Shown: one piece after another, positions 12,781 to 64,000 of the stretch
How the letters are laid out: every line of letters begins with the position of its first letter
Numbering within the stretch: the stretch's first letter is position 1
NCBI GenBank assembly: GCA_038087875.1
Contig: CM075995.1
Location: 10,232,001-10,296,000 of the forward strand
Length of the DNA: 64,000 nucleotides
Direction of reading: 5' to 3'
Origin: Malacoraja senta
Lineage: Eukaryota
Made by a program: the position numbers and the translations under genes
The notes under the pieces: model-generated
The model's database searches: none
Told to the model about the DNA's origin: nothing
The model's input: only the letters and a program-made list of their open reading frames with translations

Positions 12781-13419
12781 TATACACAATAAACAAACAT
12801 GTTATTGTTCAGCCCTCCACCACCTCCAGTTTAAATTCCATTTAGAATATTTATGGAGGACCAGGAAACCAGAAGCAATAGTTACTCCAGGGAGTTACTC
12901 CAGATCCAGGATCAGGGAGTGATTCTGCGTTGGTTTTCAGCGGTCGTGGCGAGTCGGCGACCGGACAGCAATGGCGGCCAGATCTCCCACAATTCAAAGC
13001 AAGGGAGAAAGTGCCCTGCGCCGACCAGTTGCCGTGGCAGTGCGCATGCGCAGGGCGGCCAATGATGTGCTGGCCGTGGTTGTGCGCATGTGAAGGAGGA
13101 GGATGTGCTGGCCGTAACAGTGTGCATGTGCAAGGCGGCCTGCCGTGCCTGCGGATGAGGAGCGAGCAGAGAGCGGAGACCCAGACTTGGATACGGATGG
13201 CGGGCGGAGACGGAGAGTGGCAGAGAGAGAGAGAGATAGAGAGGGGGGCCCGCCCAGAGTTGAACGGCAGGTGTCCTGCCTTGGCCGGAGGCCGCCTAGA
13301 TTTCGAGGCCTTAGGCTTCAGCCTATGAAGCCAAGTGGTAAATCCGACTCTGCGAGGCCCCCCTAGATCTCGAGGCCCTAAGCTTAAGCTTGTCAAGCTT
13401 ATACGTAAATCCGGCCCTG

Positions 13420-16339: not shown

Positions 16340-16539
16340 NNNNNNNNNNNNNNNNNNNNNNNNNNNNNNNNNNNNNNNNNNNNNNNNNNNNNNNNNNNNN
16401 NNNNNNNNNNNNNNNNNNNNNNNNNNNNNNNNNNNNNNNNNNNNNNNNNNNNNNNNNNNNNNNNNNNNNNNNNNNNNNNNNNNNNNNNNNNNNNNNNNNN
16501 NNNNNNNNNNNNNNNNNNNNNNNNNNNNNNNNNNNNNNN
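16340..16539. other. Assembly gap (200 N)
   Basis: Run of N; round length suggests a placeholder of unknown true size. Confidence 0.99.
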
Positions 16540-18057: not shown

Positions 18058-18227
18058 TTGTGGAATCGTCAGCTCTATTTCGAAAACCGGAACAGTTACG
18101 GTTCGCTGTGATACTTTTGCGGGTAGATATGTGAACATCGTCATTCCAGGAAAAAATAAAAAACTAACTCTCTGCGAGGTGGAGGTGTTTGGCTGGAGCC
18201 CCCCAGAGCCCCTCTGTACAACTGAAG
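18058..18227 (+). CDS. FTLD exon B0 (C-terminal half; partner A exon not found)
   Basis: ttcag|T...G|gtaggc; [56 protein letters not shown]. Confidence 0.88.
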
Positions 18228-21200
18228 GTAGGCTAATATACCTGCAGTGGTCCTCGCTGTACAGACCCTTACATACTGTGACTCAGACCGCATAGAAGCT
18301 TTCACCCCCAATAGAATGATCGAATGGGCGGAGCGGTAGAGTTGCTGCCTGACAACGCCAGAGACCCGGATTCGACCCTGACTACGGGTGGTGTCTATAC
18401 GGAGTTTGTACGTTCTCTCCGTGACCCGGCTGCTCAGGTTTCCTCCCACACTCCATAGATTTGTGGGTTAATTGACCGTTTAAAAAAAAGTAAATTGTCC
18501 CTAGTGTTCGGGTAGTGCACGTAAACTAAGGAAGTGATCGCTGGCCGGTGAGGATTCGATGGACTGAAGGGCCTATTTCTTCTGTCTCTGTCTCTCTACA
18601 GTCCTACACCATTGAAATCAGGCCCTTCTGCGCAACTCATCCATGCCGATCGAGATGTCCCGGACTAAGCATGGTCCATTTTCCCGCGTTTGAACCATAT
18701 CCCTCTCAACCTCGCCTATCCATGTAATGCGCCACTGTAAAGTTGTGGTCGGTGCAGTGCAGAAATGTTAACATAAACGCGTGCGCAGTAAGATCCTTAA
18801 AGTAAGATGCCGAGAGCCGCGTGGATGTCACGTGGGAGGCTCAGATAAGAGGCCTGATGACGCGAGGCTCGCGGGGCAGAAATTAACGCAATTCGCCGAA
18901 TGTACTGAAAGGCTCAAAGATTGTCCGAACCCCAGTTCACTCTCGGGCAGAACAAAGTGTGTTTGTGGGCGAGGGGTTGGGGGTAGTGATTTAGTGGAGG
19001 ATGACGGAGTAGACAATAGACAATAGACAATAGGTGCAGGAGTAGGCCATTCGGCCCTTTGAGCCAGCACCGCCATTCAATGTGATCATGGCTGATCATC
19101 CCCAATCAGTACCCCGTTCCTGCCTTCTCCCATAAGGATGGAGAAAGTGGGGGGGGGGGGGGGTAGTCATATAGTAGAGGATGGCGAAACAAGAGTGAGG
19201 TGTGATATAATGGAGGATGACTGAACAAGGGCGGGGGGATGGATATACTGTAGGATTTCCCAACGCGTGGAACGGTTCCTTAAATTCTGGAATCCAGTCA
19301 ATCTTTACATTAGATTCACGCATTTCCACTTATTCTGGGGGCTTACTGTCTTGATCCTGTATTTGTTAAATGCTTTGTTGAAGTCTACATGGATAACCCA
19401 AATGATCACCCTTGAAAACATCCATACTTAGCCAGACACGAACTTCCGTTTCCACTATCTCGCTCTCTGTGATTCGACCACTTCTGCTCACAGCAGGCGG
19501 TTAGTGGCGTCACTCTCTGTACTCCCCACGAATACATGTGCACACAGCCGATATAGTCAGGACTGCGTCGTAACCAGCAATTGTGCAGAGCAACGAGACA
19601 CAAAGAAGAAGCCAGGACCATTCCCAGCACTGCTCGCAGCCCCAGCCCGGTGCCCAGTTCCACCGGCAGGCCCGGATAAGGAAATACTTTTCTCATTTAT
19701 TTCTTTGTTTGCTGCCGAGTGAATAACTTTCCTCCGCAATAGTAAACCAGGCTCTGGGAGGAATGGCGACACAGTCCAGCACGGCCCAGGAAAACATTGC
19801 TGAGCTAGCCATTGACGGCGATAACAATGAGGACGCGAGGATGGGTTCCTGTACGGAAACCAAAAAGTCACTAAACCCCTGGTGGAGGGTCGATTTAAAG
19901 GAAACGTTCGTCGTGTCGTCAATCAGAATCGCCAACAGAGGAGACTGTTGCTCGGAACAGCTTCAAGGGGCCGAGATCCGCATCGGGAATTCATTGGAAA
20001 ACAACGGGAATTCTAACAAACTGTAAGTTTTCACCTATTAACGCTGGAACTCCAAGGCGGTTTCGAGCGAGAAAGTAAATAAATACAGTAGACGTTGTAA
20101 ATCTATAATATGAACCAAATACTGAGCAGGTCAGGCTATTTTTTTAGAGAAGTGCACGCATGGGAAAAGGGAAGACGTTAATCGTGTTAAAATGAACTAT
20201 TGCATGTACAGGGAGGATAGATGTAGGGGGGGGGGGTCCGCCTGCTGGGGTAAAGTCCAAGTGACCCCGGGAATAAAGTGTAAACAAGGTTACCTGGTCA
20301 ACATGTGAATTGCTCACCTTGACAATGTCCCCTCTTTCAGGTGTGGGGTCGTACAAATAGCTTCAAAAACAGCGACCTTTACCTTCAATTGCAACGGCTT
20401 CATCGGTCGATATGTGATCATCTTCATCCCGGGTCCTGATAAAATTCTGGCCCTGTGCGAGGTTGAGGTGTTTGGCTTCTACATGCCCATTGGAGTGGTA
20501 ACGGCTGGAGGTGGGATAGCGTCCGCGCGCGCATGCGCTGCGCGCACCGTGGCGTCTTTACTCGGTGAAAAGTTACCCAATACAGATTCAGAACATTCTG
20601 TACGACCAAACCAATTAAGACACCGATATAGTCTTGCAATGCTGCAACAAACTCTCCACACCAAACGTCAAATTTGACGTGGCGCTTCGTGTGTGGTCCT
20701 GACGTGCTTATGTTGCCAGGAATCAAGGATCTTGGTTCTGGGGAGAGGTTGGACAGGCTCGGACGTTATTTCTTTCAACGCAGGAGACTGGACGATAGAG
20801 GCGTATAAAACCATGGTGATAGGGTGAATTCACAGAGTCTTTTCCCAAGGGTAGGGGAACTAGGGGGCATAGGTTTAAGGTGAAAATGGAAAGATGTAAC
20901 AGTAATATAAGGGGCGACGTTTTCACACAGAGCGTGGTGGATGTACGGAACGAGCTGTCAAATCTAATGGTTGAGGCAGGAGAATAGCACAGTTTGAAAG
21001 ACATTTGGAAAGGTACACGAATAGGAAAGGTTTAGAGGAATGTCGGCCAAATGGGATGAAAGTGGACTAGTTGGTTCAAGATCCTGCTACGGTGCGGTAT
21101 GAACGGGTATGATTGTAATGTAGAGGTAACGGCCAGAACCCGCGGTCCGATCGTCGAGAAGGAAGAGGCCAGGTGCAACCAGATACAACACATGTCTCCG

Positions 21201-23092
21201 CCATAAACTGACGACAGAGGCGGGCGCGAGGGCAGGAGCATGGGTTGGGCAAAGATGGAGAATCCGCTCCTCAGCCCAGCACTAGCGCGTCCATAATATG
21301 ACCCCAGTGATACTTACCTACTGCTGCCCATTCAACATACTGGACAACGAAAAGAAGGCAGAAGGCAGACTACCATTGCATTTACTCATTTTGATTTTTC
21401 TACCCAACAGAAAACGTGGCGCTCGGAGCATCAGCTATCCAGTCCAGCACGGCAGAAAAGGCAGGCGCTGGGCGAGCCAATGACGGGAACAGCAACAGCC
21501 ACTGGACTCATAGCTCCTGCACACTCACCAACAGAACCCATGACCCTTGGTGGAGAGTAGATTTAAATGAAATCTACGCAATATCGATGGTATCTATCAC
21601 GAACAGAAAAGACTGCTGCTCAGATCGGCTCATCGGTGCCGAGATCCGCATTGGAAACTCGCTTGAGGACAACGGCAATTCCAACAGAGTGTAATTATTA
21701 AGCAGCAGATGGTGCCTTATTTTTTTAAATTAATATCATATAAGAAGCCTTGGAATTTTCTTCAATCTAACCTGCCAATTACATTCCATGGCCCTTCCTG
21801 GCCCCTGTAATTCAATGCTTGGAATATTTCCTACTGTCCCTGAAAGGTCATGTCTGCGTTCATCTTCTTAAACTTTAGATACGCCTTTTCGTTTTGAGCA
21901 AATTTACAACTCAATCTAAGGTTTCATTATCTTGCCCTCCACGACCATACTCTTTTCTGGAATATTTCGGTCCGGAACGCTGATAGGCTGGTCGTTAAAT
22001 AGCCCCCACATGTCACAAGTAGACTAACCGAATATCAACTGCTCCCACTTTGCTCTCTCTGGTTCCCGCCTAACAATGTTGTAATTAGCCCTCCCAATTC
22101 GGTACTTTTACCCAATATCCAGGTTGACACATTCATAAATTTCTCAATAGTTAAGAAGTCATGATCACAGTTACCAAAGGCTCTCTTACTAAAACACCAG
22201 TCACCAGACGTTACCGAATACGTGGTGAGACCACCTTCCAAAGCCCCAATCAATGATGATCTCATCTCAGCGTCATTCCGAGTGCATCCAATCTTACCTC
22301 CAGGCAGTCACTAGCTGTAGCTGGGCATAATTCCCTCAACTATTGTCACCGGGGTCGTGGGAAGTTTTCTTGAACTTCCACAACCCGTGGAATAGCATAT
22401 CACTATTAGCATAATACGCCGACTAAGCCAAATCCTTACCCACGTCGAAGCCTCATAAACCATAGCGTCAGAACGCACCTACCAAGCCCTGCACATGGAA
22501 GTCGCTCGGCCACTGTCGCAGCCACTTCCAATGGTCACTCCTCTGGAGCCCAGTGTCTCAGAAAGGTTTTCTCCATCTTCCGCGTTCTATGAGTATCAGT
22601 CGAAACCGAAACGTCACCCATTCCTTCTCTCCAGAGATGCTGCCTGTCCCGCTGAGTTACTCCAGCTTTTTGTGTCTATCTCCGTTTGAATGAGTCTGCT
22701 GTCGAGCTCATTAGCCCCCAACACCTTCTCCACTATAAAAGCAGACTCAAATAGCTGCACGCGAGAGCGGTCGCGCCTATAGTTAATGCGAACTACTCTC
22801 TCCCTAGTTACGATTTTGAGACCACATCCCAAATCTTTCTGTACACCGCCAAACCTCAGGTCTCTTTGTTACTCTCCAGATTTCATTCCGAAGGTCCATT
22901 TATCATATTTTGTACACTTCAATAGCAGACTTCTGTTTGTAGTTCTAGAATTCCTCGAGTGGTTTACTGCACCTTTATAGGGAGAACGCGGATTAACCAT
23001 ATAACCATATAACCATTACAGCACGGAAACAGGCGATCTCGGCCCTTCAAGTCCGTGCCGAACACTTTTTTTTTAAATTTTATTTTTAAAAA

Positions 23093-23141
<49 letters not shown>

Positions 23142-29100: not shown

Positions 29101-32100
29101 GTCACCGCGCTGGGTCCCAAGCACTTGTAAACGTTGCGAGCGATTCCACAGCACAGGATGATGACGATCTGTGACTAGCAGCTTCCCAACCCACACATTC
29201 CTGGAAACAAATGCTTTTTAGAAGATTGTAGTATCTCAGCCGCTTTCTACTCATCGTGCAACTTCCATTCATTACAGCTGTGGAATCGTCAAATCAGTTT
29301 CTGCATTGACACAAGTCTTCAGCTGTGGCGGTTTCACTGGTCGATATGCAAACGTCATCATCCCAGGACCTGCTAAAACCCTGACCCTGTGCGAGATTCA
29401 GGTCTTTGGCTCAAAACTCCCGTCAATGCCAGATGCAGGTAGGTTCGAATCTGCGCCAGGGTTGTGGTCGTCCACGCCCTCACCCATGCAGTCAGCGGTG
29501 CAAACTAGCCACACACAACAAATAAATTACATACGGATTCAAACAGATTTGAAGAGTGTTAAATGTGGTACTGCAGAGAACGGCGGTCCATACTTCCACA
29601 CAATATGATTAAGTGAACCAAAAACGGGACGACGCGTTATGCGGTAGTGCGGTGGGTGGATACAGTCACTGATTGTGAGTCCGCCAACCTCTGTAACCTA
29701 GCATCTAAAATCACACCAAAACAACCGACAGAATGCACCGTCGCACACCGCCGGTGGTATAATTGCGAGAGTACAGTGAGATGCGCAGGAAGAAATACAT
29801 TTGAAAATAACACGGCCATAACACCTACCAGTGTCCACTCGGGACCAAAGTGGAGATGTTGATGTTGCTCGAAGTTCCGGCACACATTCAGTTGCCCTGA
29901 AGTTCATCCCTCTTCAGGACCTTGGTAAAAATCGTCCCGCAGCCCGGAATTCTCTCCTTCATCACACAGAGGGGTCGGCGAAAAATTAACTGCTCCTCCA
30001 CCTATCCGCATCACTACCATGTACGTTAAGTGGACGTGATGCACGACTGCAGTGCCCTGTGCTCATGTTAATTGGCAGATTCAAATATGCAACATGGAAA
30101 GAGGCCCTTCAGCCACCGAGTTCACGCCGATCACAGATCACCCACTCACACTAGTTCAAAGTTATCTCACTTTCTCATCAATTCCCTACGCACTAGCTTC
30201 AAGGTACAGAGGCCAATTAATCTACAGACCCGCACGTCTGTGAAAAATGAGAGGAAATCGGAGCAAACCCGCGCCCTAATGTCCAGCGCTCTGCGACAGC
30301 AGCTTTACCACCATCCCTTCCTATTTCCTTACCATCATGCGGTACATTAGAAGAGCGAAAACAACGATCGCATGGACGATATAAATGATGGTATAAGATT
30401 ATAATGTGGTATGAGAGGTTACCCACATGACCGCATGGCATGAGATTTATTAATTGGGCCTCAGTGAACACTGCCCGATCCATCAATGGTACTTACCTTC
30501 CCGCCATCGAAGAGATTTATAAGAGTCGCTGCCTCAAAAAGACAGGCAGCATCATTAGAGACCCACACCACCCTGGTCACGCTTTCAATTCACGTCTTCT
30601 GTCGGGAAGAAGGTAAAGTATGAAGACCTGAAAGCCGTAACGTCCAGGTTCAGAAGTCTTCCCAACAACCTCCAGGCTGTTAAACACTACAACTTTCAAA
30701 CAAGCTCGGAACATACTTGGGGGAAGGGGGGGGGGGGGTGGGGACATTGCTTTTTGGCTTTGCATTATTATTGTTTTTTTTGTTTTGTTTTATACTGAGT
30801 ACTATATCTACTAAACTTTCTTGTTGTTTATTATCGTATTTACAGAGTACTATGTTTGCATATGTGTTGCATTTGTGCAAGTAAAAATTATATTATTCCG
30901 TTTCGGGACATATGACAATAAACCACGTTTGACGCTTCACAATAGGAAACGCGGCCCCCAGAGCAGAGGTCATCCAGTCGAGCACCTTCGAGTCGGCAGG
31001 TGCTGAGCGAGCCATTGACGGCAACAAAAACAGCAACTTCATGCGTGATTCCTGCACACACACTAATAAATCCGCACACCCCTGGTGGAGAGCCGATCTA
31101 AAGCAACCCTACAACGTGTCAGTTGTAAGAATCACAAACAGAAGAGACTGCTGCTCGGAATTGCTTACGGGAGCCCAGATCCGAATCGGGGACTCGCTGG
31201 AGAATGATGGCAATGCTAACAGACTGTAAGTATTCAGAGGCAAACTCCGACTATTCAGCAGTTGCGTCGCGCTCCGGAAGTTCCACTATCGGTGTTGTAT
31301 TGAAGACCAGTTCCAATGCAGTTTTACTGCAGAGCAGGTTTCGCATGTCTAATCCACAGATGAGGGAGAATCTTCGACCACTTATTCAGCGGTAGGATCT
31401 CCAACCTTGCCTCTAAGGCAGGGGGGAGTAAATCTGAAGCAGATGAACGCATCTATAGTTCCACCATAAAGTCAAGTTGAGTACCATGGATCTCAGAACG
31501 TCATAGTACAAGAACAGGCCCTTCGACCCACAATATCCCTGCCGAATATGACGCCACGTTAAACTAATTTCCTCCGGCTGCACGTGATCCATATCCCTCC
31601 ATTCCCCGCATGTCCATGATACTATCTAAAACGCCCCCTAATGGTCCCAATCGTATCTACGTTCGGTAGAAAGGTCACCGGCATAATTAAGGACGATTCT
31701 CAGGCAGGTCACTCCCACCTCTGCCCTCTTCCTACAGGAAAGGGGCACAGAAATGTGAAACCGTATACATCCAGATTCAGGGACCGTTTCTTCCCAGCTG
31801 TTTTCAGGCAACCGAACCATTGTCTCACCAACAAGGGAGTGATGCGGACCTATCATCTACGTCTGAAGAAGGGTCTCGTCCAGAAACGCCACCCATACCT
31901 TCACTCCAGAGATGCTGCCTTTCCCGCTGAGTTACTCCAGCTTTTTGTGTCTACCTTCGGTTTAAACCAGCATCTGCAGTTCCTTCCTACACTACCACCT
32001 ACCTACCTACCTACCTACGTCGGATTTAATCGGACTTACTGGAAATGTATCTTGCACTAAAAGTTATTCCCGTTATTCTGAATCTGTACATCGTGGACGG

Positions 32101-35100
32101 TTTGATTGTAATTACGTATAGTTTTTTCGCTGACTCCGTAGCATGCAACTGAAATGCTTTTCAGTGCACCTCGGAACACGTGCAAATAAACTAAACGAAC
32201 CAATGGATCACAACTGGCAGCGCGTTCCAGACACACTTGCTGCACACACCTCCTTTAAAGGTCCCTCCTCTCACCTTAAAGCTCTTCCCTCAAGGCGATA
32301 ATATTTCCACCATGGAAAGGATATATTCTGATTGCCTACCCAGTAGATGTCTCACATCACTTTCTAAACTTTAAACATGGTTCCCCTCAACCCCCGTAGT
32401 GGCAGAGAAAACAATGAAAGCTTGAAATAATTAGCATGAGAACATATGCTCGCGCTTATAAATGTTCAAGGTAACTGCTGCTTTGTTGAGCAAAGGAACA
32501 CATTGCCATCCTCAGTCTACCTGTGGATTTGGGGTCTGTCCCGTTTTTACTGCCTCCTCAAAACATAGTTATTTAGGGCTGTTGCCGGAAGAAGCCCTGT
32601 GACGCACGTACGTGCCATGAAACTTTGCCAGTCGTTCACCAGCACAGGCTCGCGATGAGCTCACAGGTTCACGGCGGGCGCTAGTCCGATCGATCGCAGT
32701 AACTGTCTCTCACACGGATATCCTCATCTCTTACAGTTGTGGAATGATTCATTCGGCTTCCGGGACGACATTTACCTTTAATTGTGGTGGACTTGTCGGT
32801 CGATATGTAAACATCATCATCCCAGGCCGTGGTAAAATATTGGCCCTGTGCGAGGTTGAGATCTTTGGTTCAGAACTCCCGTCCATACTTCGAAAAGGTA
32901 GGCTGAACACTCCCGCTGACGCACTGGTTGTACACTGCCCCACAGCTTAGTTGAGGGAGTTTCCCGCTGATAAGGCCTGAGGATAACTACCCTCCTGAAG
33001 CTCAATACCGTATTTCTCAACACCCTGCACTCCACATTATTAGGTTAATTACCAGTCTTGGACCCTCACATTGTGCATACATGATCCTTTGCATGAAATC
33101 CCCGGGGCGCTCGGTGCACACGGCCTCATCAATTCAGGCTGGATACCTCATGCTGATAGAAAACAGCCACGCACCAAGGAATTACACACCTATTTTAACC
33201 ACCTTGATGGTTGTCTCCCCGCTATCAGACTATTGAAAACTCCTCCTTTGCGTTGTAGTGCAATCCCAATATTTTAACCTGCCACAGTGCGGTTCGTGGA
33301 CACATTTTCTAAAGCCGTAAAGCTATAACTCTACAACACCACGTCCTGCAATCTACTGTTTTATTTTCACTTTAATTGTTGCTCTTGTGTGCGGATTCAT
33401 TGCACAGGTGTACAGTATGATTTGACTGTATAGTACAAACAAAAGTTTCTACTGAATCTCGCTTAACCTGACCATACTAAAGCAATACGAATACTGATGC
33501 AAACCTTGATAGAGCGCCCACATTCCTTGCGGTTCAATGAGGTGTTTCCCACCCAACAGAAAACGTAGCGTCCGGAGCACCGACGATCCAATCCAGCACG
33601 GATGAAGGGGCAGGTGCTGAGCGAGCCAATGACGGGAACAGCGACAGCAACTTCTGGCATGATTCATGCGCGCGCACCTGGAAATCCTACAACCCTTGGT
33701 GGAGAGTCGATCTAAAGGAAAGCTACAACGTGTCAGATGTAAGAATCACCAATAGAGCAGACTGCTGCTCGGACCAGCTCCAAGGAGCCGAGATCCGCAT
33801 CGGGGACTCGCTGGAGAACGATGGCAATTACAACAGACTGTAAGTATTCATAAGCGAACGCCGACTCTATTCACCTGCTGTGCCTTGTTCTGGAATTCTA
33901 CTGTTACTGTTGTTAACGTCAGTGGGAAAAAGAGAGCTGCTTCAGGTCGAAACCAACCTCACTGCAGAGAACGCTAAAACTGTGCACCACAGATGAGAGG
34001 GAACATGAAACAGAGCCGTAGATCAATTATCCAGTGGCATGAGATGCTGACGTACCTCCATAGCGGTGGGGTCAAATACTGAGATGGATACATTTGTAAT
34101 TTAAGTGAATTCATGTAATGTAATATTGAACAATCGGATTACAATGACAATGTTCAGGTAACCAATGCCTATGGGTGAGGGAGCAATCAGTGCAGACCCA
34201 GATAATACTACCAATGTATTTGGACTCTCCCGTTTCTTGCTATATGTTAAGGACATGAGCAAGTGGTGAGGATGTCGGAAGTAGCCGTGAGTGCAAACCT
34301 ACTCTCCCACGTGCACAACCCACCCAACATCCCGTGAACGTGTCACCAATTCAAGGTTTCAAGGTCAAGTCAGTTTATTGACACATGTACCAATTAAGGT
34401 AAAGTGAAATTTGAGTTTCCGTACAGCCATACTAAGTGAAAAGCAACAAGCCACACAACCACATAAACGTTAATATAAAATCCACCACAGTGGATTCCAC
34501 ATTCCTCACTGTGATGGAAGGCAATAAAGTTCAATATTATTCCTTTTTGTTCTCCCGCGGTCGGGGCAGCCAAACCATCCGCATTCGGGGCGATCAAAGC
34601 CCCCCCCCCGCAGCCGACGATCGAAGCCCCCGTCGGGGTAATCGAAACTCCCGCGTCTGGGCGGTTGAAACTCTCTCCGCGGCATGGAGCTCCCGAGTCG
34701 TCCTCTTCTTACCAGAGACCGCGGGCTTCACGATGTTAAAGTTCACAGGCCCCGCGGTTGGAGCTTCGATCCCCGGCAAAGGGATCGCAAGCTCCGCTAT
34801 TTTTAAGTCCGCAGTCTCCAGCGGCTTGGAGCGCCCGTCCGTCTCCAGGAAAGGCCGCCAACTCCAGGATGTTGGGCCGCAGTGCAGACGGAGATTCGAT
34901 ACGGAAAAAAAATCGATCTCCGTCATAGAAACATGGAAACATAGAAAATAGGTGCAGGAGGAGGCCATTCGGCCCTCCGAGCCACAACCGTCATTCATTG
35001 TGATCATGGCTGATCGTCCACAATCAATAACCCGTGCCTGCCTTCTCCCCATATACCTTGATTCCACTAGCCCCCTAGAGCTCTATCTAACTCTTTCTTG

Positions 35101-44100: not shown

Positions 44101-47100
44101 CCTTGGAATCTTTGTTCGTCTTTGGAATGAACTGAACCTGCACCTTCTGTATTATTCCCTGAAATATCTGCCATTGTTGTTCCACTGTCATCCAGTCAAC
44201 ATTGGCCAGCTCCTCCCTCATGACTCCATAGTCCCCTTTATTCAACTGTAAAACTGACACCTCCGATTTACCCTTCCCCGTCTCCAATTGTAGATTAAAC
44301 TTGACCATATTTTGGTCACTACCTCCTAATGGCCCCTTAACCTCAACTTCCTTTATCAAATCCGTTTCGTTACATTACACTAAATCCAGAATTGCCTGCT
44401 TCCTGTTAGGCTCCGAAACAAGCGGCTCTAAGAATCCATCACGGAGGCACTCCACAAACTCCCTTACTTGGGGTCCAGTACCAACCTGATTTTCCCAGAC
44501 TACCTGCATGATGAAATCTCCCGTAACAACCATAGCTTTACCGGTACTACATGCCAATTTTATCTCCCGATTCAACTTGCACCCTATATCCAGGATACTG
44601 TTTGGGGGCCTATAGATAAGTCCCATTAGGGTATTTTTACTCTTACAATTCCTTAGTTCTATCAATACTGACTCCACATCTCCTGTTTCAATGTCACCCC
44701 TTGCAAGGGACTGGATTTCATTCTTCACCAACAGAGCTACCCAACTCCCTCTGCCCACATGTCTGTCTTTTCGATAGGATGTATAACCTTGAATATTCAG
44801 TTTCCTGCTCTGGCCCTCTTGCAACCATGTAATTTCCACAACAGCATACTTGCCAATTTCTAACTGAGCCTCAAGCTCGGCGACTTTAATTCTTATACTT
44901 CACGCACTTTGACCTCGGTATTCACCTCCCCTCTGGCACCGGTCACAATTGGCCCTGACCTTACTCTCTTATCCCTTCTCGAACTTTCCTTCCCATTAAT
45001 TCGAGAGTCCTTTTTAACTTTTCCATACTCACTTCCCCTTCAACTCCAGCTTTATCCTCCCAATTTGTCAATCACCCCCCCCCCACTATTTAGTTTAAAC
45101 CCACACGTGTAGCCCTAGCATACCTGCCTCCCAGAACGTCGGTCCCCCTCCAGTTAAGGTGTAACCCTTTTGTACAGGTCACCCCTACCCCAGAAAAGAT
45201 CCCAGTGGTCTATAAATCTAAATCCTTGCTCCCTGCACCAGCCTCTCAGCCACTCATTCAGATCCCCTATATCCCTGTTCCTGTCCTCACTAGCTCGAGG
45301 TACTGGAAGCAACCCAGAGATAACCACCTTAGAAGTCCTACTTTTCAGTCTTCATCCAACTCCCTGAACGCACGTTGCAGAACCTCCTTCCTCTTCTTCC
45401 CGATGTCGTTTGTGCCCACGTGCACAACTATTGCCGGCTGCTCACCTTCCCTCTCGAGGATGTTCCGAATTCGGTTCGTGACATCTTGAACCCTGGCACC
45501 AGGGAGGCAACAGACCATCCTCGCGTCTCGCCTGCCCCCACAGAATCTCCAGCCAGCACCTCGGATAATGAAATCACCGATCACGATGGCTCTGGCCGAC
45601 GTTGTTTTCGCTGGTCGAGTCCCATCTCTAGGATTGGAGCCACCGACCTGTCCGTCGCTCGGACTGGAAGCGTCGTCTCCCCCGACAGCTCCCAAGAGGG
45701 CGCACCTGTTTTCATTAGGCACAGACACCTGGGTCTTCTGCACTACACGATGTCCACCCTTTCACTCAGTCACACACCTTGTTCTTCCCGTATCCTCGGC
45801 GTGACAACCTCACTGTAGGTCCTGTCCAGGAAACTCTCGTTTTCCCGGATGGCCCTGAGGTCATCAAGCTTCTTCTCCAGTGCCCCAACACTGTTCTTTA
45901 GGAGCTGAACCTAGACTCATTTGCCACAGTTGTAGCAGCCAGAGGCACCATCCGTGTCCCTGGGCTCCCACATCCTGCAAGCATCACACTGTCTCATCTT
46001 ACCCGTCATGTGTTCAGCTAGTCCCGCCCTCTCCAACGTAGTTTCCTCTCCTCCGCCTCCTCGCCGAAGAATCTCGAGCCAAAGACTCACACTTTACTCG
46101 CTTCTCTCACAAGGCCGCCCCCTCACTGCCGCTCCCCTAGAGCAGCCTTGCTTTTATTGGCTGATAAATTGCCTAATTTGCCAATTTACAAATTAAATTC
46201 CTCAGTTTTAAACTGTTTTCCCCTCTGGCTCACCTCCGACTCACTTTTCCCACGCGTTTTAGCCAATAAGTTCTTCTCACTGCTTCTCTTTGATTACTGT
46301 TTCTCCGAGATCCACGTAAGCACTGGGCTAACCCTGGCTTTTTGGCGCAGTTTTTAAACTATTTTTCCCCTCTGACTCACCTCTGACTCACCTTTCCCAC
46401 GAGTGTCAGCAAATAAGCTCTTCTCCTTGTTTCTCTTTGATTGCTGCTTTCCCAGATCCACGTAAGCACTGGGCGCCTAATGAAACACTTTTGAATAACG
46501 AATCCCCGCCATCAGACTACAGAACGGTTAATCCTTGAGTAGGAGAGCAATCCCGATTTTTAACCCTGCCTCAGCGCGGGTCTTGGACGATTACCATAAA
46601 GCTATAATACCGTAACACCATAATCACGTAATCTTTTGTTTTTTTACTGCCTCGCCTGATGTACAGTATGATTTATTGGATAATACGAACAAATGTTTTC
46701 ACTGCATCTCGCTTCACTTGAACATACTACAGCAATACGAATATCAATTAAATACAATGCTAATCCAAACTTGGAAAGAATGCCTACATCCGTCGTCATT
46801 AAATCTCTCCCTTGCGGCCCATTGAGTTGTTTCCCACCCAACAGAAAACGTGGCGTTCGGAGCACCCCCGACCCAGTCCAGCACGGATGAAGGGGCAGTT
46901 GCTGAGATAGCCAATGACGGTAACAGCGACAGCGACTTCAGGCATGGTTCATGCGCGCGCACCAGGAAATCCAAGAACCCTTGGTGGAGAGCCGATCTAA
47001 AGGAAATGTACAAAGTTTCATATGTCAAAATCACCAATAGAGCTGACTGCTGCTCGGACCAGCTCCAAGGAGCCGATATCCGCATCGGGGACTCGCTGGA

Positions 47101-50100
47101 AAATAATGGCAATTCCAACAGAAGTATTTAGAGGCAAACGCCGACTCTATTCAGCTGTGGTGTCTTGTTCTGCAAGTTCCACTGTTATTGTTGCAGTGAT
47201 ACAATGTATGAGAAACTGAGAACAGCTGCAGGTTAAGACGGATCTCACTGTAGAAAGAAATAAACCTGATCACCGCCGATCCAGATGCGAGAGAAAATGA
47301 TACATAGGTACATAGATACACAGAAAATAGGTGCAGGAGTAGGCCATTCGGCCCTTCCAGCCTGCACCGTCATTCAATGTGATCATGGCTGATCATCCAA
47401 CTCAGTATCCCGTACCTGCCTTCTCTCCATACCCCCTGATCCCCTTAGCCACAAGGGCCACATCTAACTCCCTCTTAAATATAGCAAATATAGATACAGA
47501 GCCATAGACCACTTACCCAGTGGCATGAGCTGCCGACGTACCTCTATAGCGGTTGGTTCAATTAAAGGATAAGAATATATCTGTAATTTAATTGAATACA
47601 TGTTATGTCACATTAAAGCATCGGATTGCAGGGGCGATGTTCAGGTAACCAATGCCAATGGGTGAGGGTTCAAGGCGTCACTATCCATGTACTTGGACCC
47701 CCTCCTGTTCCTAGCTATTTGTTAGGGACAGGGGCAAATGGGGAGGATGTCGGCGGCATCATCGAGAGCAACCTCCCACCTCCCTTCCCAACCCAACATC
47801 CCTTGAACGTGTCACCAGTTGACGAGCACGCACAGTGAAAACGAACACCTCCAGATTCAGTCTTCCCTGCCTTTATCAGGTAACGGAATCGTCCTACCAA
47901 CAACTAGAAAGCAACCCTGAGCTACTAATTACCTCACTGGAAACCATAGGACTACCTTTGATCGGACTTTACTGGCTCTCTTACACTTACTTACTTACAA
48001 ATGTTATTCACGATATTCCCGTCATCATGGACACTGTGGGTGGCCCGATTGTAATAATGTATTGTCTTTCCGCTGACCGGTTAGCACGCAACAAAAAGCG
48101 TTTCACTGTACCGTGGTACACGTGACATAAACCAGACTCAGGCTCACGATGACGTTTGACACGTTGCCTCGTCCGCCGTCATCGAGCTAGTGGAGTGTCA
48201 CAAGTTCATATTCGTCTCTTTCAGCTGTGCAACAGTGGAATCGGCTTCTAGGACGTTGTCCATCAACTGTAGTGGATTTGTCGGTCGATATGTGAACATC
48301 ATCAATCCAGGCCTGGAGAAAACCTTGACCCTGTGCGAGGTTGAGATCTTTGGTTCAAAGCTTCCGTCTTTACCTGGAACAGGTAGGCTGAATTGCCCGC
48401 TAAGGCTCTGGTTCCACACAGCATCGCATTTCACTTCAGCCAGTTTCCCGCTGATAAAGTCTGAGGTAAATGACCTTCCTGAAGCACAATGCCGTCTTTC
48501 TCAATGCCCTGAACTTTACCAGTCTTAGTTTACTCGCCGATCTTGGACTCTTGCATTGTAGAAACATGATCCAGTCTGTGAATGAAATCCATGAGACAGG
48601 GTGCACATGCTCGTATCCATTCATTCCGGAGACTTTATGCTGATAAAGAACTACCACGCACTAACTAATTACACGCCGATTGTAACAGGCTTGAATATTA
48701 TCTCACTGCTGTCAGATTACTGAACGGTCCTCCCTTGAGTTCTAGTCCAATACCGACCTGCCTTAGTGCTGTTCTTAGACATATTTTCTATAGCCATAAA
48801 GCTGTAACACATTAACACCATTTTGTTCCATCTATTGTTTTCTCTACTTCACCTGTTGCTCGTGTGCGGCATCATTGCAAAAATGTACAGTATGACTTGA
48901 TTGTATAGTATAACTAATGATTTTCAGCATCTTGCTTTATCTAAACAATACGAATATCAACGAAATACACTGCTGATCCAAACCTTTTTAGAAGGCATAC
49001 ATCGATAAGATCATCAGTTCATACGTGAGAGGAGCAGAATTAGGCCAACCAAGTCTACTCCTCCAATCAATCATGGCTCATCTATTTCCCCATCCTAACC
49101 CCATTCTCCTGTCTTCTCCAGGGACACAAGACGATACATAGAAACATAGAAACATAGAAAATAGGTGCAGCAGTAGGCCATTAGGCCCTTCGAGCCTACA
49201 CCGCCATTCAATATGATCATGGCTGATAATCCAACTCAGTATACTGTACCTGCCTTCTCTCAATACCCCCTGACCCCTCTAGCCACAAGGGTTACATCTA
49301 ACTCCCTCTTAAATATAGCCAACGAACTGGCCTCAACTACTTTCTGTGGCAGAGATTTCCACAGATTCACCACTCTCTGTGTGAATTTTTTTTTCTCATC
49401 ACGGTCCTAAAAGACTTCCCCCTTATCCTTAAACTGTGACCCCTTGTTCTGGACTTCCCCAACATTGGGAACAATCTTCCTGCATCTAGCCTGGCCATCC
49501 CCTTAAGAATTTTGTAAGTTTCTATAAGATCCCCCCTCAATCTTCTAAATTCTAGCGAGTACAAGCCGAGTCTATCCAGTCTTTCTTCATATGAAAGGCC
49601 TGACATCCCAGGAATCAGTCTGGTGAACCTTCTCTGTACTCCCTCTATGGCAAGAATGTCTTTCCTCAGATTAGGAGACCAAAACTGTACGCAATACTCC
49701 AGGTGTGGTCTCATCCAAGCCCTGGACAACTGCAGTAGAAGCTCCCTGCTACAATACTCAGATCATTTTGCTATGAATGCTCACATATACAGACAATAGT
49801 CTACTTACCTGTTCTTGCCACCAAAGTGGATAACCTCACATTTATCCACATTATACTGCATCTGCCATGCATTTGCCCACTCACCCAACCTATCCAAGTC
49901 ACCTTGCAGCCTCCTATCATCCTCCTCACAGCTAACACTGCCCCCCAGCTTCGTGTCATCCGCAAACTTGGAGATGTTGCACTCAATTCCCTCGTCTAAA
50001 TCATTAATACATATTGTAAATAGCTGGGGTCCCAACACTGAGCCTTGCGGTACCCCACTAGTCACTGCCTGCCATTCTGAAAAGGACCCGTTTACTCCTA

Positions 50101-59100: not shown

Positions 59101-62100
59101 TCGAGCAGATTCGTCAGGCAAGATCTCCCCTTCACAAAACCATGCTAACATCGGATATTTTATCATGAACTAAGTACTCCGTAATCTCATCCTTTGTAAT
59201 GGAATGTAGTCTTACCAACCACTGGAGTCAGACGAACCGGTCTATAGTTCCCACTATTCTGCTCTGCTCCCTTCCTGCCCAGCGAGGTAATATTTGTAAT
59301 TGTCTACTCGTCTGGAACAACTCCTGATAACAATGATTCTTCAAATATCACTACAAATGCCTCCACAATCTCTAACGCCACTTTTTTCAGAACCCTCGCG
59401 TGCGGCCCATCCGGTCCTGGTGACTTATCCACCGTCTGACCCAAGGACATACTCCTTAGTACTAGACACATCACTAACTTCCACCCCTAACCATCTTGGA
59501 TTGTAGGCACGTTACTGGTGTCTTCCATTGTGACGATTGCAGTTGTACAGGGTCTTGGTGAGACCACACCTGGAATATTGCGTACAGTTTTGGTCTCTTA
59601 ATCTGAGGAAAGACATTCTTGCCATAGAGGGAGTAGAGAGAAGGTTCACCACACTGATTCCTGGGATGGCAGGACTTTCATATGAAGAAAGACTGGATAG
59701 ACTCGGCTTGTACACGCTAGAATTTGGAAGATTGAGGGGGGATCTTATAGAAACTTACAAAATTCTTAAGGGGTTGGACAGGCTAGACGCAGGAAGATTA
59801 TTCCCGATGTTGGGGAAGTTCAGAACTAGGGGGGTCACAGTTTAAGGATAAGAGGGAAGTCTTTTAGGACCGAGATGAGAAAATCATTTTTTACACAGAG
59901 AGTGGTGAATCTGTGGAATTCTCTGCCACAGAAGGTCGTTGAGGCCAATTCATTGGCTATATTGAAGAGGGAGCTAGATGTGGCCCTTGTGGCTAAACGG
60001 GTCAGGGGGTATGGGGAGAAGGCAGGGATGGGATACTGAGTTGGATGATCAGCCATGATCATATCGAATGGTGGTGCAGGCTCGAAGGGCCGAATGGCCT
60101 ACTCCTGCACCTATTTTCTATGTTTCTATGTTTCTATGATTGCTGCAAAACTGTATTCAATTCTTCTGCCATTTCTTTATTCCCCATTATCACTTCTCCT
60201 ATATCATTTTCTTGCAGTTCAACTTCCATTCTTGCTTCTTTCTCATTCTATATATATGAAGAAACTCTAAATATCCCATGCCTCTCGCTTCCCCATAATC
60301 TTTGCAATATTGCATGTCTTCTCTTTTAGTTTTATGCTGTCCTTGACTTCCCCTGTCAGCCACGGTCACCCCAGTCTCCCACTAGAATCTTTCTTCCACT
60401 TTGGAATGAAAATATCCTGCATCTTCCGAATTATTCCCAGAAGTTCACGCCATTGCAATTACACCGTCATTCATGCGAGGGTCCCTTTCCATTCAACCTC
60501 CTCATAACTCGGTAATCCCATTTGTTCAGCTCTCATACCGACACATCGGATTTCAATAGACACTAGACAATAGACAATCCAGATAATTGGTCTCCACTGC
60601 CCTCTGGGGCAGAGAATTCCACAAATTCACAACTCTGTGTGAAAATGTTTTTCCTCATCTCCGTTCTAAATGGCCTGCCTCTTATTCTTAAACTGTGGCC
60701 CCTGGTTCTGGAAAAAAAAACATGCCTCTAGCGTGTCTTATATGTTTCAATAATATATCCTCTCATCCTCCTAAATTCCAGAGTATACAAGACCAGCCGC
60801 TCCATTTCATCCTCTTCCTCTCAAATTGCAGGTTAAATCTTTATCATATTGTGGTCGGCAACTTTTTGAGGTTCCTTTACCTTAAGCTCCAATATCAAAT
60901 CCCAGTTCATTACAGAACACTAAATCCAGAATTGAATTTCCCTGTTAGGCTTCACTGCAAATTGTTCTTAGAAAGCATATTGGAGGTACACTCTGACCCC
61001 CCCTCTGTTGGGCTCCAGTACCAACCTGATTTTACCCGGTCAATCTGCATCAGTCGGCATTAAATCTCTCCCTGGTGACTCAGTGACATTTTCCCACCCA
61101 ACAGAAAACGTGGCGTTCGGAGCACTGCCGACCCAGTCCAGCACGTATCAAGGGGCAACTGCTGAGCGAGCCAATGACGGTAACACCGACAGCAACTTCA
61201 GGCATGGTTCTTGCACGCAAACCAATAAATCCAAAAACCCTTGGTGGAGAGTCGATCTACTACACAGCTACAACGTGTCAGGCGTAAGAATCACCAACAG
61301 AGCAGACTGCTGCTCGGATCGGCTTCACGGAGCCGAGATCCGCATCGGGGACTCAGTGTCTAACGATGGAAATCGCAACAGGCTGTGAGTATTCAGAAGC
61401 AAGCGCCGACTCTTTTCAGCTGCGGTGTCTTATTCTGCAAGTTCCACTGTTATCACTGCAATGATAACACGAGTGGGAATCAGAGAAATGCCGTAGATTA
61501 AGACTGGTCTCACTGAAGACAAAATTAAATCTGTGCACCGCTGATCCCGATGCAAGAGAAAATGATACAGAGCCGTAGTCCACTTATTCAGTGGCTTGGG
61601 CTGCTGACGTACCTCTAGTGGCGTTGCGTTCAATAAAACGAAATGAATGTACCTGTAATTTAAGATAAATCAAGTTATGTAAGATTGAGCAACCAGTGAC
61701 TATGGGTGAGGGATCAAGCACTCCCTCCACAGACAGGGCTACCTATGTATCTGGATCGTTTCCTGTCCCCGGCTACCTGTTCGGGACAGGAGCAAGTGGG
61801 GAGGAAACTGGGAATAACAGCGGGAGCCGCCTACATCCGATGAACCGGTCACCAGTTCACCAGCGCAGGCCTTCGTTAGCGTTTGACAAGCTGTCCCATC
61901 CGCAGTTATCGACATAGTGGAGTCTCACCTTTAAATCCTTATTCCATTCAGATGTGGAACCGTGGATTCAGTTTCTTTGATGAACTTCAATTGTGGTGGA
62001 ATTGTCGGTCGATATGTGACCATTATCATCCCAGGGAATAATAAAATATTGACCCTGTGCGAGGTTGATATCATCGGTTCTGAACTCCCGTCGTTACTTG

Positions 62101-63844
62101 GAACAGGTAGGCTGAGCTTGCCGCTGAGCACTGCTTCGATACAACATCTCATCTTAGTTGAGCGTCTTCAGCTGATAAAGTTTGTCGATAATTATCTTCC
62201 TGAAGCCCAGAACCATATTTCCCACCGCTCTACTCTTTGCCATTCTTAGATTAATCGCCAGTCTTGGGTCCTCGCATTGTGCAAACATAATCCAGTCTCT
62301 GAATTAAATCCCCGAGACACTAGGTGCATACACAGCTACAACGTGTCAGGCGTAAGAATCACCAACATAACATCATTCATCCGGAGACGTTGTGCTGATC
62401 AGCAGCAGGCACGTCCCAACCAATTATACGACTATTGAGACACGCTTGAATAGTACCTCCCTACTCTCAGACTATTGAACGGTTCTCCCTTGAGTTGTAG
62501 TTCAATCCCGATCTTTTAGCTTGCCTCATTGCGGTTCTTGGGATTATTTGAAAAAACGTAAACCGTAACACTATAACATGATATTGTCACATAATGCATT
62601 ATGTTATTACTTTTTCTACTTCACACGTGGCTCCTGTGTGCGGCTTCGTTGCACTGTTGTACAGTACGATTAGATTGGATGGTACAAGCAAGGGTGTTTA
62701 CTGCATCTGGCTTCACTTGACCATACTAAAGCAATACGAATATCAATGAAATTCACTACTGCTCCATTGCTTGATACAAGGCCTCCATCCGTCGGAATTA
62801 AATGTCTCCTTTGCGGCTCATTGAGGTGCTTCTCATCCAACAGGAAACGTGGCGTCCGGAGGACGGCCGACCCAGTCCAGCACGTATGCAGGGGCAGGTG
62901 CTCATCGAGCCAATGACGGTAACAGCGACATCCACTTCAGGAATGGATCATGCTCGCGCACCAGGAAATCCACAAACCCTTGGTGGAGAATCGATCTATT
63001 AGAGATCTACAATGTGTCAGATGTAAAAATCACAAACAGAGCAGACTGCTGTTCAGACCGGCTTCAAGGAGCCCAGATCCATATCGGGAACTCACTGGAG
63101 AATGATGGCAATTCCAACCGACTGTAAGTATTCAGAAGCAAACGCCGACTCTATTCAGCTGCGGGATCGTGTTCTGCAAGTTCCACTGGCACTGTTGCAA
63201 TGGTAACATGAGTGGGAAACAGAGAAAAGCTGCAGGTTAAGACTTATCTCACTGCAGAAATAGCTAAAAACGATCACGGTTGTTCCAGATGCGAGAGAAA
63301 GTGATACAGAGCCGCAGACCAAGTCTGTAGCGGTGGGTTCAATAAAAGGAGACGAATATACATGTAATTTAAGTTAATTCAATAAAAATAATATTGAACA
63401 ATCGGAATGCATGTGCAATTTTCAGGTAACCAACGCCCATGTGTGAGGGAACATGGAGTTCCTTCCGAGACAAGGTGACCATTGTATCCGGACCCTTTCC
63501 TGTTCCTAGTTAATTGTTTGGGAGGTAACGGCAAGGATGCCCGGGATAGACGCGGGGGCTCAGCACATGCCATGAAAGTGTCACCACTTCACCCGCACAG
63601 GCCTTCGATAACGTTTGACACGAGATCCCGACCGCAGTGATCGAGATATTTCAGGCTCACCTTTAAATCTTCATCTATTTCAGCTGTGTAACTGTTGCTG
63701 CGGTTAATTTGACGACGTTTCTCTTTAAATGTGATGGATTTGTCGGTCGATATGTGAACATCATCATCCCCGGCCACAACAAAATCTTGACCCTGTGTGA
63801 GGTTGAGATCTTTGGTACAGAAGTCCCGTACTTCATTGGAAAAG
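18058..63844 (+). CDS. Multi-exon gene encoding a tandem F-type lectin (fucolectin/FTLD) polyprotein with >=10 domains; 5' and 3' ends not seen
   Basis: 19 exons alternating B/A with AG acceptors, GT donors (two exceptions) and compatible phases; motifs QSST, A(I/N)DG(N/D), SC, PWWR(V/A)DL, NRxDCC, GA(E/Q/D)I, GRY, LCE(V/I); about 4.1 kb coding in window. Confidence 0.9.
18325..18600 (+). mobile_element. V-SINE-like element with CR1-like 3' end
   Basis: GGTAGAGTTGCTGCC...GATTCGACCCTGAC...GGAGTTTGTACGTTCTC; ends GGACTGAAGGGCCT. Confidence 0.65.
19743..20022 (+). CDS. FTLD exon A1
   Basis: caatag|TA...CT|gtaagt, 280 nt; [13 protein letters not shown]...LAIDGD...SCTET...PWWRVDL...[10 protein letters not shown]...GNSNKL. 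Confidence 0.9.
20341..20510 (+). CDS. FTLD exon B1
   Basis: tttcag|G...G|gtggga, 170 nt; [45 protein letters not shown]; donor choice less certain. Confidence 0.85.
20725..21070 (+). mobile_element. Degenerate CR1 3' fragment
   Basis: TRGHRFKV...[12 protein letters not shown] remnant. Confidence 0.6.
21411..21690 (+). CDS. FTLD exon A2
   Basis: caacag|AA...GT|gtaatt, 280 nt; [13 protein letters not shown]...ANDGN...SCTLT...[10 protein letters not shown]. Confidence 0.9.
23096..23149. repeat. (TTA)n/poly-T microsatellite
   Basis: Directly visible. Confidence 0.9.
23436..27710 (+). mobile_element. Near full-length CR1 LINE: ORF1 (CxxC..CxxC finger + SGNH esterase-like) and ORF2 (APE+RT, frameshifted)
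   Basis: ORF1 23538..24500 [31 protein letters not shown]2 24852..27614; TSD ATCA at 23432-23435 and 27711-27714. Confidence 0.95.
29278..29438 (+). CDS. FTLD exon B2
   Basis: ttacag|C...G|gtaggt, 161 nt; [44 protein letters not shown]. Confidence 0.9.
30946..31225 (+). CDS. FTLD exon A3
   Basis: caatag|GA...CT|gtaagt, 280 nt; AIDGN...SCTHT...[10 protein letters not shown]. Confidence 0.9.
32737..32897 (+). CDS. FTLD exon B3
   Basis: ttacag|T...G|gtaggc, 161 nt; [30 protein letters not shown]...LCEVEIFG. Confidence 0.9.
33560..33839 (+). CDS. FTLD exon A4 (absent from ORF track)
   Basis: caacag|AA...CT|gtaagt, 280 nt; [13 protein letters not shown]...ANDGN...SCART...[10 protein letters not shown]. 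Confidence 0.9.
34924..37750 (-). mobile_element. Fragmented CR1 3' half, interrupted by an L2-type insertion
   Basis: (CATAGAAA)n tail at ~34924; ORFs 35067..35264 and 37357..37581 (FADNTKLGG). Confidence 0.8.
35628..37226 (+). mobile_element. 5'-truncated L2-clade LINE (RT domain)
   Basis: [46 protein letters not shown] then (GACTT)n tail; TSD CTATACT at 35621-35627 and 37227-37233. Confidence 0.85.
38281..38438 (+). CDS. FTLD exon B4 (absent from ORF track)
   Basis: tttcag|C...G|gtaggc, 158 nt; [43 protein letters not shown]. Confidence 0.9.
39123..39402 (+). CDS. FTLD exon A5
   Basis: caacag|AA...CT|gtaagt, 280 nt; SCART...[10 protein letters not shown]. Confidence 0.9.
39981..40141 (+). 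CDS. FTLD exon B5
   Basis: tttcag|C...G|gtaggc, 161 nt; [30 protein letters not shown]. Confidence 0.9.
40846..41125 (+). CDS. FTLD exon A6
   Basis: caacag|AA...CT|gtaagt, 280 nt; SCART...[10 protein letters not shown]. Confidence 0.9.
41707..41867 (+). pseudogene. FTLD exon B6 with mutated donor (GG instead of GT): putative pseudo-exon or terminal exon
   Basis: Open frame CAIVDS...[12 protein letters not shown]|ggaggctgaac versus G|gtaggctgaac in paralogues; read-through stops at 41921-41923. Confidence 0.7.
42150..46475 (-). mobile_element. Full-length but decayed CR1 LINE
   Basis: CAATAGACAATAGG tail; ORF2 pieces 42880..44839; ORF1 esterase 45345..45743 ([15 protein letters not shown]); 5' UTR direct repeat. 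Confidence 0.9.
46845..47122 (+). pseudogene. FTLD exon A7 with a 5-bp deletion removing the donor: putative pseudo-exon
   Basis: AACAGA-AGTATTT versus AACAGACT|GTAAGTATTC in paralogues; read-through stops at 47129-47131. Confidence 0.7.
47305..47492 (-). mobile_element. Short 5'-truncated CR1 3'-end insertion
   Basis: TSD GATACA at 47299-47304 and 47493-47498; empty site AATGATACAGAGCC present in a paralogous intron at ~61561. Confidence 0.85.
48225..48382 (+). CDS. FTLD exon B7
   Basis: tttcag|C...G|gtaggc, 158 nt; [29 protein letters not shown]...LCEVEIFG. Confidence 0.88.
50839..54282 (+). mobile_element. 5'-truncated CR1 (partial ORF1 + disabled ORF2) nested in CR1
   Basis: TSD GACCT at 50834-50838 and 54283-54287; host resumes KTNVG|PL. 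Confidence 0.9.
56553..56817. repeat. 17-bp tandem repeat CCCTTAACTCACTG(T/A)AC, ~15 copies, in CR1 5' UTR
   Basis: Directly visible upstream of ORF1 on the minus strand. Confidence 0.92.
57065..58030 (-). mobile_element. Degenerate Rex1/Babar-like LINE RT fragment
   Basis: [47 protein letters not shown] motifs. Confidence 0.65.
58030..61045 (-). mobile_element. Old degenerate CR1 fragments
   Basis: [15 protein letters not shown] remnant and other ORF2-like pieces; boundaries approximate. Confidence 0.65.
59541..60137 (+). mobile_element. 5'-truncated CR1 3' end nested in older CR1
   Basis: [14 protein letters not shown]...; (TTCTATGT)n tail; GATTGC on both flanks. Confidence 0.85.
61105..61384 (+). 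CDS. FTLD exon A8
   Basis: caacag|AA...CT|gtgagt, 280 nt; SCTQT...[10 protein letters not shown]. Confidence 0.9.
61952..62106 (+). CDS. FTLD exon B8
   Basis: attcag|A...G|gtaggc, 155 nt; [42 protein letters not shown]. Confidence 0.88.
62844..63123 (+). CDS. FTLD exon A9
   Basis: caacag|GA...CT|gtaagt, 280 nt; SCSRT...[10 protein letters not shown]. Confidence 0.9.
63684..63844 (+). CDS. FTLD exon B9 (gene continues beyond window)
   Basis: tttcag|C...G|gtaggc, 161 nt; [44 protein letters not shown]. Confidence 0.9.
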
Positions 63845-64000
63845 GTAGGCGGAACTTTCCGCTGAGGCTCTGGTTGTGCACAGCCCCCTAGCATAGTTGG
63901 GAAGATTCTCCCACTGATAAGGTATGCGAAATAAAGATCTTCATGAGGCCGTGTACCGTCATTCTGCCCTTCTCCACTTTTGGACTCTCGCATTGTCCAA

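Follow-up and report, generated by a model that had tools for sequence, protein, structure and literature searches.

The F-type lectin array and its extent

The DNA considered here is a 64,000-nucleotide (nt) window of the skate Malacoraja senta, which lies on contig CM075995.1 (C19 below) at C19:10,232,001-10,296,000. It holds the first part of a very long tandem array made up of domains of the F-type lectin kind (FTLDs). Six-frame translation and a repeat search of the window find two exon types that recur on the + strand. A exons are 280 nt long and run from phase 1 to phase 2, and B exons are 155-170 nt long and run from phase 2 to phase 1. Each domain is a two-exon module (A plus B) flanked by phase-1 introns. 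A first-pass annotation had described 10 B and 9 A exons between 18058 and 63844 that alternate strictly, with no in-frame stop within any exon, and we find the same. Its figure of about 1380 amino acids (aa) for the window is also right, as the summed exons come to 4,131 nt or about 1,377 aa. It had taken the phases to be compatible throughout, which is not the case. B exon 41707-41867 has GG where a GT donor is expected, and the A exon at 46845 has lost its donor through a 5-nt deletion. With this dead pair skipped, the window codes for about 1,231 aa, or 8 complete domains and one half.

An A-exon search of the genome gave 72 matches, the majority of them immediately downstream of the window. 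The region mapped was the window plus 100 kb upstream and 300 kb downstream (464 kb in all), and an extended coordinate plus 10,232,000 gives the position on C19. The full array has 55 A and 56 B exons that alternate over 270 kb. About 223 kb of this is beyond the window, where domains 10-55 occupy extended 64,517-287,442. The 3' limit is at extended coordinate 287,442 (C19:10,519,442), where the terminal B exon (287,267-287,442) carries a stop, and there is an AATAAA at 287,589, about 147 nt further on. The array had been thought open at both ends. This is true of the 5' end, where a run of N (16340-16539) precedes the first B exon, but the stop-bearing B exon closes the 3' end. The 55-domain array is real, and it is much larger than was first stated.

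GT is found at 108 of 110 internal donors and AG at all 111 acceptors. Spliced without the dead pair, the array gives a model of 26,228 nt and 8,741 aa (about 950 kDa) whose single stop is the terminal one. This model has 54 complete F-type lectin domains and the B half of the first domain, and none of its 109 exons has a stop or a frameshift. The proposal of one long FTLD polyprotein is therefore supported and exceeded, with at least 55 domains in one predicted frame. Nine B exons are stretched to 386-434 nt by Pro/Thr/Gly-rich linkers and retain their phase-1 donors. Most domains have 1-5 N-glycosylation sites. The domain count excludes the dead pair and, as non-functional, two B copies with frameshifts, seven B fragments truncated at the 5' end and seven A fragments. 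An intronic 932-nt tandem repeat at extended 213,428-218,981 (L015-L016) bears five 5'-truncated B-exon copies.

Extending the window had been suggested as a way to find more domains or a pentraxin or membrane-anchored end. More domains were found, but neither kind of end was. The pentraxin parts of P0042 and P0021 have no match in the fetched stretches, and there is no transmembrane-like stretch in the visible 8,741-aa model, where the highest 19-residue hydropathy is 1.8. A hidden Markov model scan for F5_F8_type_C had also been suggested. All 5 A exons scanned passed the Pfam cut-offs; the 2 B exons scanned on their own had no match. The features within the window are as follows.

16340..16539, no strand: assembly gap (N run) before the first visible exon
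18058..18227, + strand: B exon of domain 1 (A exon missing), with an extra Cys in its linker
19743..20022, + strand: A exon of domain 2
20341..20510, + strand: B exon of domain 2
21411..21690, + strand: A exon of domain 3
29278..29438, + strand: B exon of domain 3
30946..31225, + strand: A exon of domain 4, His kept and last Arg lost
32737..32897, + strand: B exon of domain 4
33560..33839, + strand: A exon of domain 5
38281..38438, + strand: B exon of domain 5
39123..39402, + strand: A exon of domain 6
39981..40141, + strand: B exon of domain 6
40846..41125, + strand: A exon of domain 7
41707..41867, + strand: B exon whose donor is dead (GG), probably skipped
46845..47119, + strand: A exon with deleted donor, likely skipped along with 41707
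48225..48382, + strand: B exon that finishes domain 7 provided that the dead pair drops out
61105..61384, + strand: A exon of domain 8
61952..62106, + strand: B exon of domain 8
62330..62404, + strand: decayed A-exon fragment inside an intron, outside the count
62844..63123, + strand: A exon of domain 9
63684..63844, + strand: B exon of domain 9
63845..64000, + strand: first part of the intron through which the array leaves the window

Fold and sugar-binding site

The nearest solved relatives of a window exon are FBP32 (3cqo, E 2.8e-44) and the eel lectin 1k12. The fold was checked on the skate orthologue P0104 from Leucoraja, not on the window's own spliced domain. Its AlphaFold model has a predicted local distance difference test (pLDDT) score of 91, and the best Foldseek matches are 3cqo (E 5.9e-21) and 1k12 (root-mean-square deviation 1.4). 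Judging from this model, the F-type jellyroll fold is kept in the array domains. A trimer prediction from three copies of P0104 residues 1-140 scored 0.00 with the alignment not used, and bears neither for nor against.

The domains had been called fucolectins, and as a statement about fucose binding this is not supported by the sequences. The fucose motif is a His followed by Arg-x-Asp-x4-(Arg/Lys), as given in section 8 of one review (PMC12221842) and in another review (PMC5712786). The triad positions were fixed by alignment to 3cqo and 1k12, where the His-Arg spacing is 26; the review writes it as 24. The full His/Arg/Arg triad is present in 0 of 54 complete domains. The His is found in 2, the first Arg in 53 and the last Arg in 7. 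In 44 domains the His has become Arg, and in 39 the last Arg has become Gln. Across other species, counting only domains with PWW and DCC, the triad is found in 0/35 domains from ten skate models, 10/10 from Pristiophorus and 213/338 from the remaining matches.

Much of the rest of the domain is conserved. Arg65, Asp67, Cys68-Cys69, PWWR and Cys36 are invariant in 51/51 full-length A exons, and the His position is Arg in 43 of these 51. The calcium motif h2DGx takes the form AxDGx in 51/54 domains (ANDG in 42, strict AIDG in 6, AKDG in 3). The median ratio of nonsynonymous to synonymous substitution rates (dN/dS) is 0.41 over 1,247 of 1,275 A-exon pairs. It is 0.37-0.54 across divergence classes and below 1 in each, and the core of the fold is under purifying selection. 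We argue that the fold has been retained and the classical fucose site has not, so far as sequence can tell. Fucose binding is predicted to be lost or changed. According to section 8 of PMC12221842, binding may be lost in part or altogether where the triad is changed. By fold and gene structure the array belongs with the F-type domain family, but it fails the fucose-motif test and so is better not classed among the true fucolectins.

All 54 domains have 6-7 Cys. There is an extra, apparently unpaired Cys in domains 18, 44, 48 and 55 and in the linker of exon 18058-18227, and these could form inter-chain disulphides.

The proposed product

We lean, if only slightly, toward one gene for a glycoprotein of about 1 MDa, probably secreted and arranged as beads on a string, that would cross-link glycans other than fucose. 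For the role as a glycan cross-linker we would put the chances at about even. In this scenario the array would have grown by unequal crossing-over of the phase-1/phase-1 module. Because the module is symmetric the frame is kept at any copy number and whole pairs can drop out, as 41707/46845 may have done. The leader would have been lost in the assembly gap and the dead exons would be skipped. Secretion is suggested by analogy with paralogues and with the leader-bearing Narcine and Pristiophorus proteins, and the visible part has no transmembrane stretch. The pocket would have been retuned rather than abandoned. It keeps its first Arg, its Asp and both of its adjacent Cys, and it would stay basic because the His is replaced by Arg. 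According to section 13 of PMC5712786 the two-domain MsaFBP32 is about 81 Å long, so 55 domains would reach about 200 nm or more. The most likely function of many weak sites on such a chain would be multivalent, low-affinity cross-linking of a glycan other than plain fucose in mucus or jelly. An FTP-domain protein was detected in catshark skin mucus (PMC10707392), but nothing links that protein to the array gene.

A bolder form of this proposal is tentative, and we would sooner doubt it than rely on it. It holds that the product is a megadalton, 200-nm-scale lectin polymer, far longer than any other family member found here, whose pockets, more than 50 in number, were retuned by the His-to-Arg and Arg-to-Gln changes to another, possibly anionic, glycan that is new to them. 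This polymer would be a main cross-linker of a skate gel (for example skin mucus, egg jelly or electrosensory jelly), and annotation splitting would have hidden it.

The rival that survives best also has one giant gene, but with domains that are blind to sugar. The protein would be a structural rod or spacer in a gel, an egg jelly or a matrix scaffold, and only the lost N-terminal domains, if any, would bind. This fits the absence of the triad from all 54 domains and the loss of binding, partial or total, that the review (PMC12221842, section 8) allows for such changes. The Pro/Thr-rich linkers and the N-glycosylation sites would suit a scaffold. However, a pocket whose Arg, Asp and adjacent Cys pair are invariant in every full-length A exon, and whose His position is mostly Arg, has not drifted freely. 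It must be noted that recent descent from few copies could also explain this invariance. We consider a sugar-blind scaffold unlikely and keep the cross-linker as the preferred product. The repeated R/R/Q pocket is a natural variant that can be assayed as a single 146-residue domain, which could tell us how F-type specificity is retuned. Domain 20 is an example of this type, and domain 9 is of the R/R/R type.

One gene or several

We think it probable that the whole 270-kb array is one gene. Within 44 B exons, every one of the 125 pairwise gaps has a length divisible by three; in the 160 nt that follow their donors this is true of 443 of 1,645. Since gaps are frame-conserved within B and the sequence behind the donors is not, the B exons behave like internal ones. 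Of the 55 B-to-A introns, 26 are shorter than 1 kb, the shortest being 461 nt. A search for leader exons detected them before the paralogous loci on C4015 and C854, which serves as a positive control. The C4015 family leader also matches upstream of the C4391 gene and of the second C19 cluster, but nothing in the 464 kb around the array matches it significantly (best E 0.91). A leader scan gave 7 candidates in B-to-A introns, all apparently one intron stretch. We rejected a conserved internal leader, as most A exons either have no such homologous stretch before them or have one broken by a frameshift or a stop.

Three related skates have matching domains. RefSeq fragments of Amblyraja radiata, Rhinoraja longicauda and Leucoraja erinacea are collinear with it, mostly at 79-96% identity. 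Many pair with their own array domains in a quick tree of 92 columns, in which Latimeria, Umbra and Pristiophorus were represented by just two domains apiece and which was used solely for pairing orthologues. These fragments (Amblyraja LOC116984049/036/017 and LOC116983989; Rhinoraja LOC144607515/509; Leucoraja LOC129706200/218) share the order and the triad loss of the array. They differ from it in being annotated as separate proteins of 235-1,478 aa, none of which covers the whole. They have no signal peptides and often begin or end mid-domain, so we read them as pieces of one long gene. If this is right, public annotation has split a conserved skate gene into uncharacterised pieces, which matters for the proteomics of skate mucus and jelly.

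Several points weigh against one long functional gene. Public annotations divide the skate locus into many small genes. Four A exons, which form two duplicated pairs, are preceded by an ATG with a hydrophobic stretch and a weak phase-1 donor. In the quick tree a Narcine protein's first, leader-adjacent domain is weakly grouped with domains 52-53, and therefore the tail of the array could be a separate gene. A single frame requires several skips: the dead pair, the frameshifted B copies 221441 and 239359 (which have intact acceptors) and the intronic fragments. Read-through of 41707 would reach a stop at 41921 and end the protein after domain 7, and the Amblyraja model P0046 includes the pair that is dead here. 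A dN/dS of 0.4-0.5 is moderate constraint. Duplicated blocks at 98-98.5% identity could include haplotype duplicates. Finally, the fetched assembly has neither the start codon nor the leader, which leaves secretion and the actual number of domains as predictions.

The rival built on some of these points is that the locus is a cluster of short genes, or that it makes several shorter transcripts because of internal promoters, alternative splicing or early polyadenylation. It is favored by the RefSeq models in three skates, which have 2-9 domains, by the leader-like ATG stretches ahead of 4 of 55 A exons, by an AATAAA that follows 15 of 56 B exons at a distance of up to 500 nt, and by the position of the dead pair near the 5' end. 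But A donors are followed by AATAAA more often (38 of 55), and the sequence behind the B donors is not frame-conserved. The leader-like stretch does not survive before most other A exons, and the fragment models lack signal peptides and often start or stop mid-domain. We rate this rival a little lower than the sugar-blind scaffold and continue to treat the array as one gene.

The dead exons are not assembly errors, because contigs from DNA runs agree with the assembly across both sites (X2 records 13 and 15; X1 record 8). These contigs come from two DNA runs of one study, one of which may be from the assembled animal. As the two dead exons adjoin, a join from 41125 to 48225 keeps the frame, and the pair is likely skipped in splicing. 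Since Amblyraja P0046 still includes it, its loss here would be recent. We considered a cryptic rescue of the pair and rejected it: there is a weak in-frame GT 6 nt upstream for 41707, but for 46845 the 120 nt examined about its end contain no GT in the right phase.

The 5' end is missing. An N gap lies 1.5 kb ahead of the first exon, and no A exon is found in the 118 kb upstream of that exon (B1). The leader and at least one A exon were presumably lost in the gap at 16340-16539. There is no second close copy of B1 in the genome, and none of the skate models among 42 protein-search matches has its orthologue. In the stretches fetched, the edges of the gap show no overlap with the unplaced contigs C4015, C4537 and C4391, which carry short genes or pseudogenes of their own. 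Searches by tblastn with leaders of other species gave only noise among the matches listed. Hydrophobic ATG candidates at extended -16589 and -31078 lie beyond two gaps and are unlike the family leader, so they were not accepted. Long minisatellites (periods 15, 18 and 22) lie ahead of the gap at window 13418-15907 and 1-961. There is a second gap at extended -11514, and the piece upstream of the array may be misplaced.

Copy number and decay

Long duplicated blocks are at most 98.5% identical with introns included, so that even the closest differ by about 1.5% or more. Identical A exons occur in sets of 3 and 2. An 80-nt A-exon contig in run X1 has a depth of 49.9 where neighboring contigs have 2.2-4.5. 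This is rough, and depth does not equal copy number, but it fits the mean of 15 assembly copies of the contig's words. A decaying pseudogene, or a copy number inflated by assembly error, could draw on the gap at the start of the array, the dead exons, the blocks at 98-98.5% and the identical A exons, but it is very improbable and largely refuted for the bulk of the array by 109 used exons free of stops and frameshifts, dN/dS below 1 in every divergence class, the rough X1 depth and orthologues in three skates.

Relation to known systems

Giant secreted proteins made of tandem domains are known elsewhere. DMBT1, FCGBP and apolipoprotein(a) are multivalent and grew by duplication of symmetric exons. 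Their domains are unrelated to FTLDs, so this is an analogy only.

The closest characterized relatives are MsaFBP32/MsFTL1 of striped bass (3cqo) and the eel agglutinin AAA (1k12), which have the same fold and belong to the same sequence family. The MsFTL1 gene also has two exons per domain with flanking phase-1 introns, according to part of the review PMC12221842. MsaFBP32 has 2 domains and AAA has 1, against at least 55 here, and both keep the His/Arg/Arg triad that no array domain has. The Xenopus laevis pentraxin fusion protein also has tandem FTLDs in one chain. It has 5 of them and a pentraxin, whereas the array has about eleven times more domains and no pentraxin match in the fetched stretches.

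The first-pass annotation gave 1-4 domains, or 5 in Xenopus, as the known vertebrate range, and regarded ten as unusual. The first statement fits the two family reviews in the passages that bear on it, which count 2-4 domains in teleosts and 5 plus a pentraxin in Xenopus as the vertebrate maximum. Database gene models already exceed this range, and ten is not unusual among them, as Xenopus tropicalis reaches 13-14, Umbra 13, Pristiophorus 11 and Esox 10. The highest counts among 328 fetched proteins are Nucella with 37 (A-halves only), the snail Gigantopelta aegis with 16, X. tropicalis LOC100491211 with 13-14, Umbra pygmaea and a Branchiostoma model with 13 each, and Pristiophorus japonicus with 11 and a signal peptide. 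The named-protein search covered proteins up to 2,000 aa, and the search of representatives, for which no length limit is stated, took one protein per 50% cluster. The predicted long arrays of X. tropicalis, Umbra, Pristiophorus and Gigantopelta thus have 10-16 domains, at most 16 of them complete, against 55 here. By these predicted models 55 domains would be about four times the largest vertebrate gene model found here (13-14). In the literature searched, from which most subscription papers are absent, no title or abstract describes this array. If true, a 55-domain member would widen the family's range by a factor of about four, and among secreted proteins of vertebrates it would rank as very large.

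The sawshark Pristiophorus deserves separate mention. Its array has the canonical triad in 10/10 scored domains and stands apart in the tree. It is likely, on these sequences, an independent expansion.

Other loci and repeats

The interspersed repeat copies in the window are 90-95% identical and lie at 9000-12800, 24800-27700, 51400-54300 and 59500-60100; they are probably of LINE (long interspersed nuclear element) type. Three open reading frame pieces from other intronic repeats have no Pfam match. About 105 kb upstream of the array, on the opposite strand, is an exon of an ankyrin-repeat gene (L032:2392-2856, - strand; Pfam Ank).

A second FTLD gene lies at C19:10,692,943-10,759,980 (L053-L059, L070). 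It has a leader-like exon of the family type and six domains, and it spans an N gap. One of its A exons is in two pieces, and its style resembles the Narcine multi-domain protein. Further short FTLD genes are found on C4015, C4537, C4391 and C854 and at C19:9,589,622-9,590,986. Several are disrupted, by stops or by a frameshift (C4015 57358-57624 and 60615-60917, and the C4391 B exon). Part of C4015 is duplicated, at 99% identity, as C4537. The gene on C854 is an apparently intact single-domain FTLD gene with a leader and the full triad.

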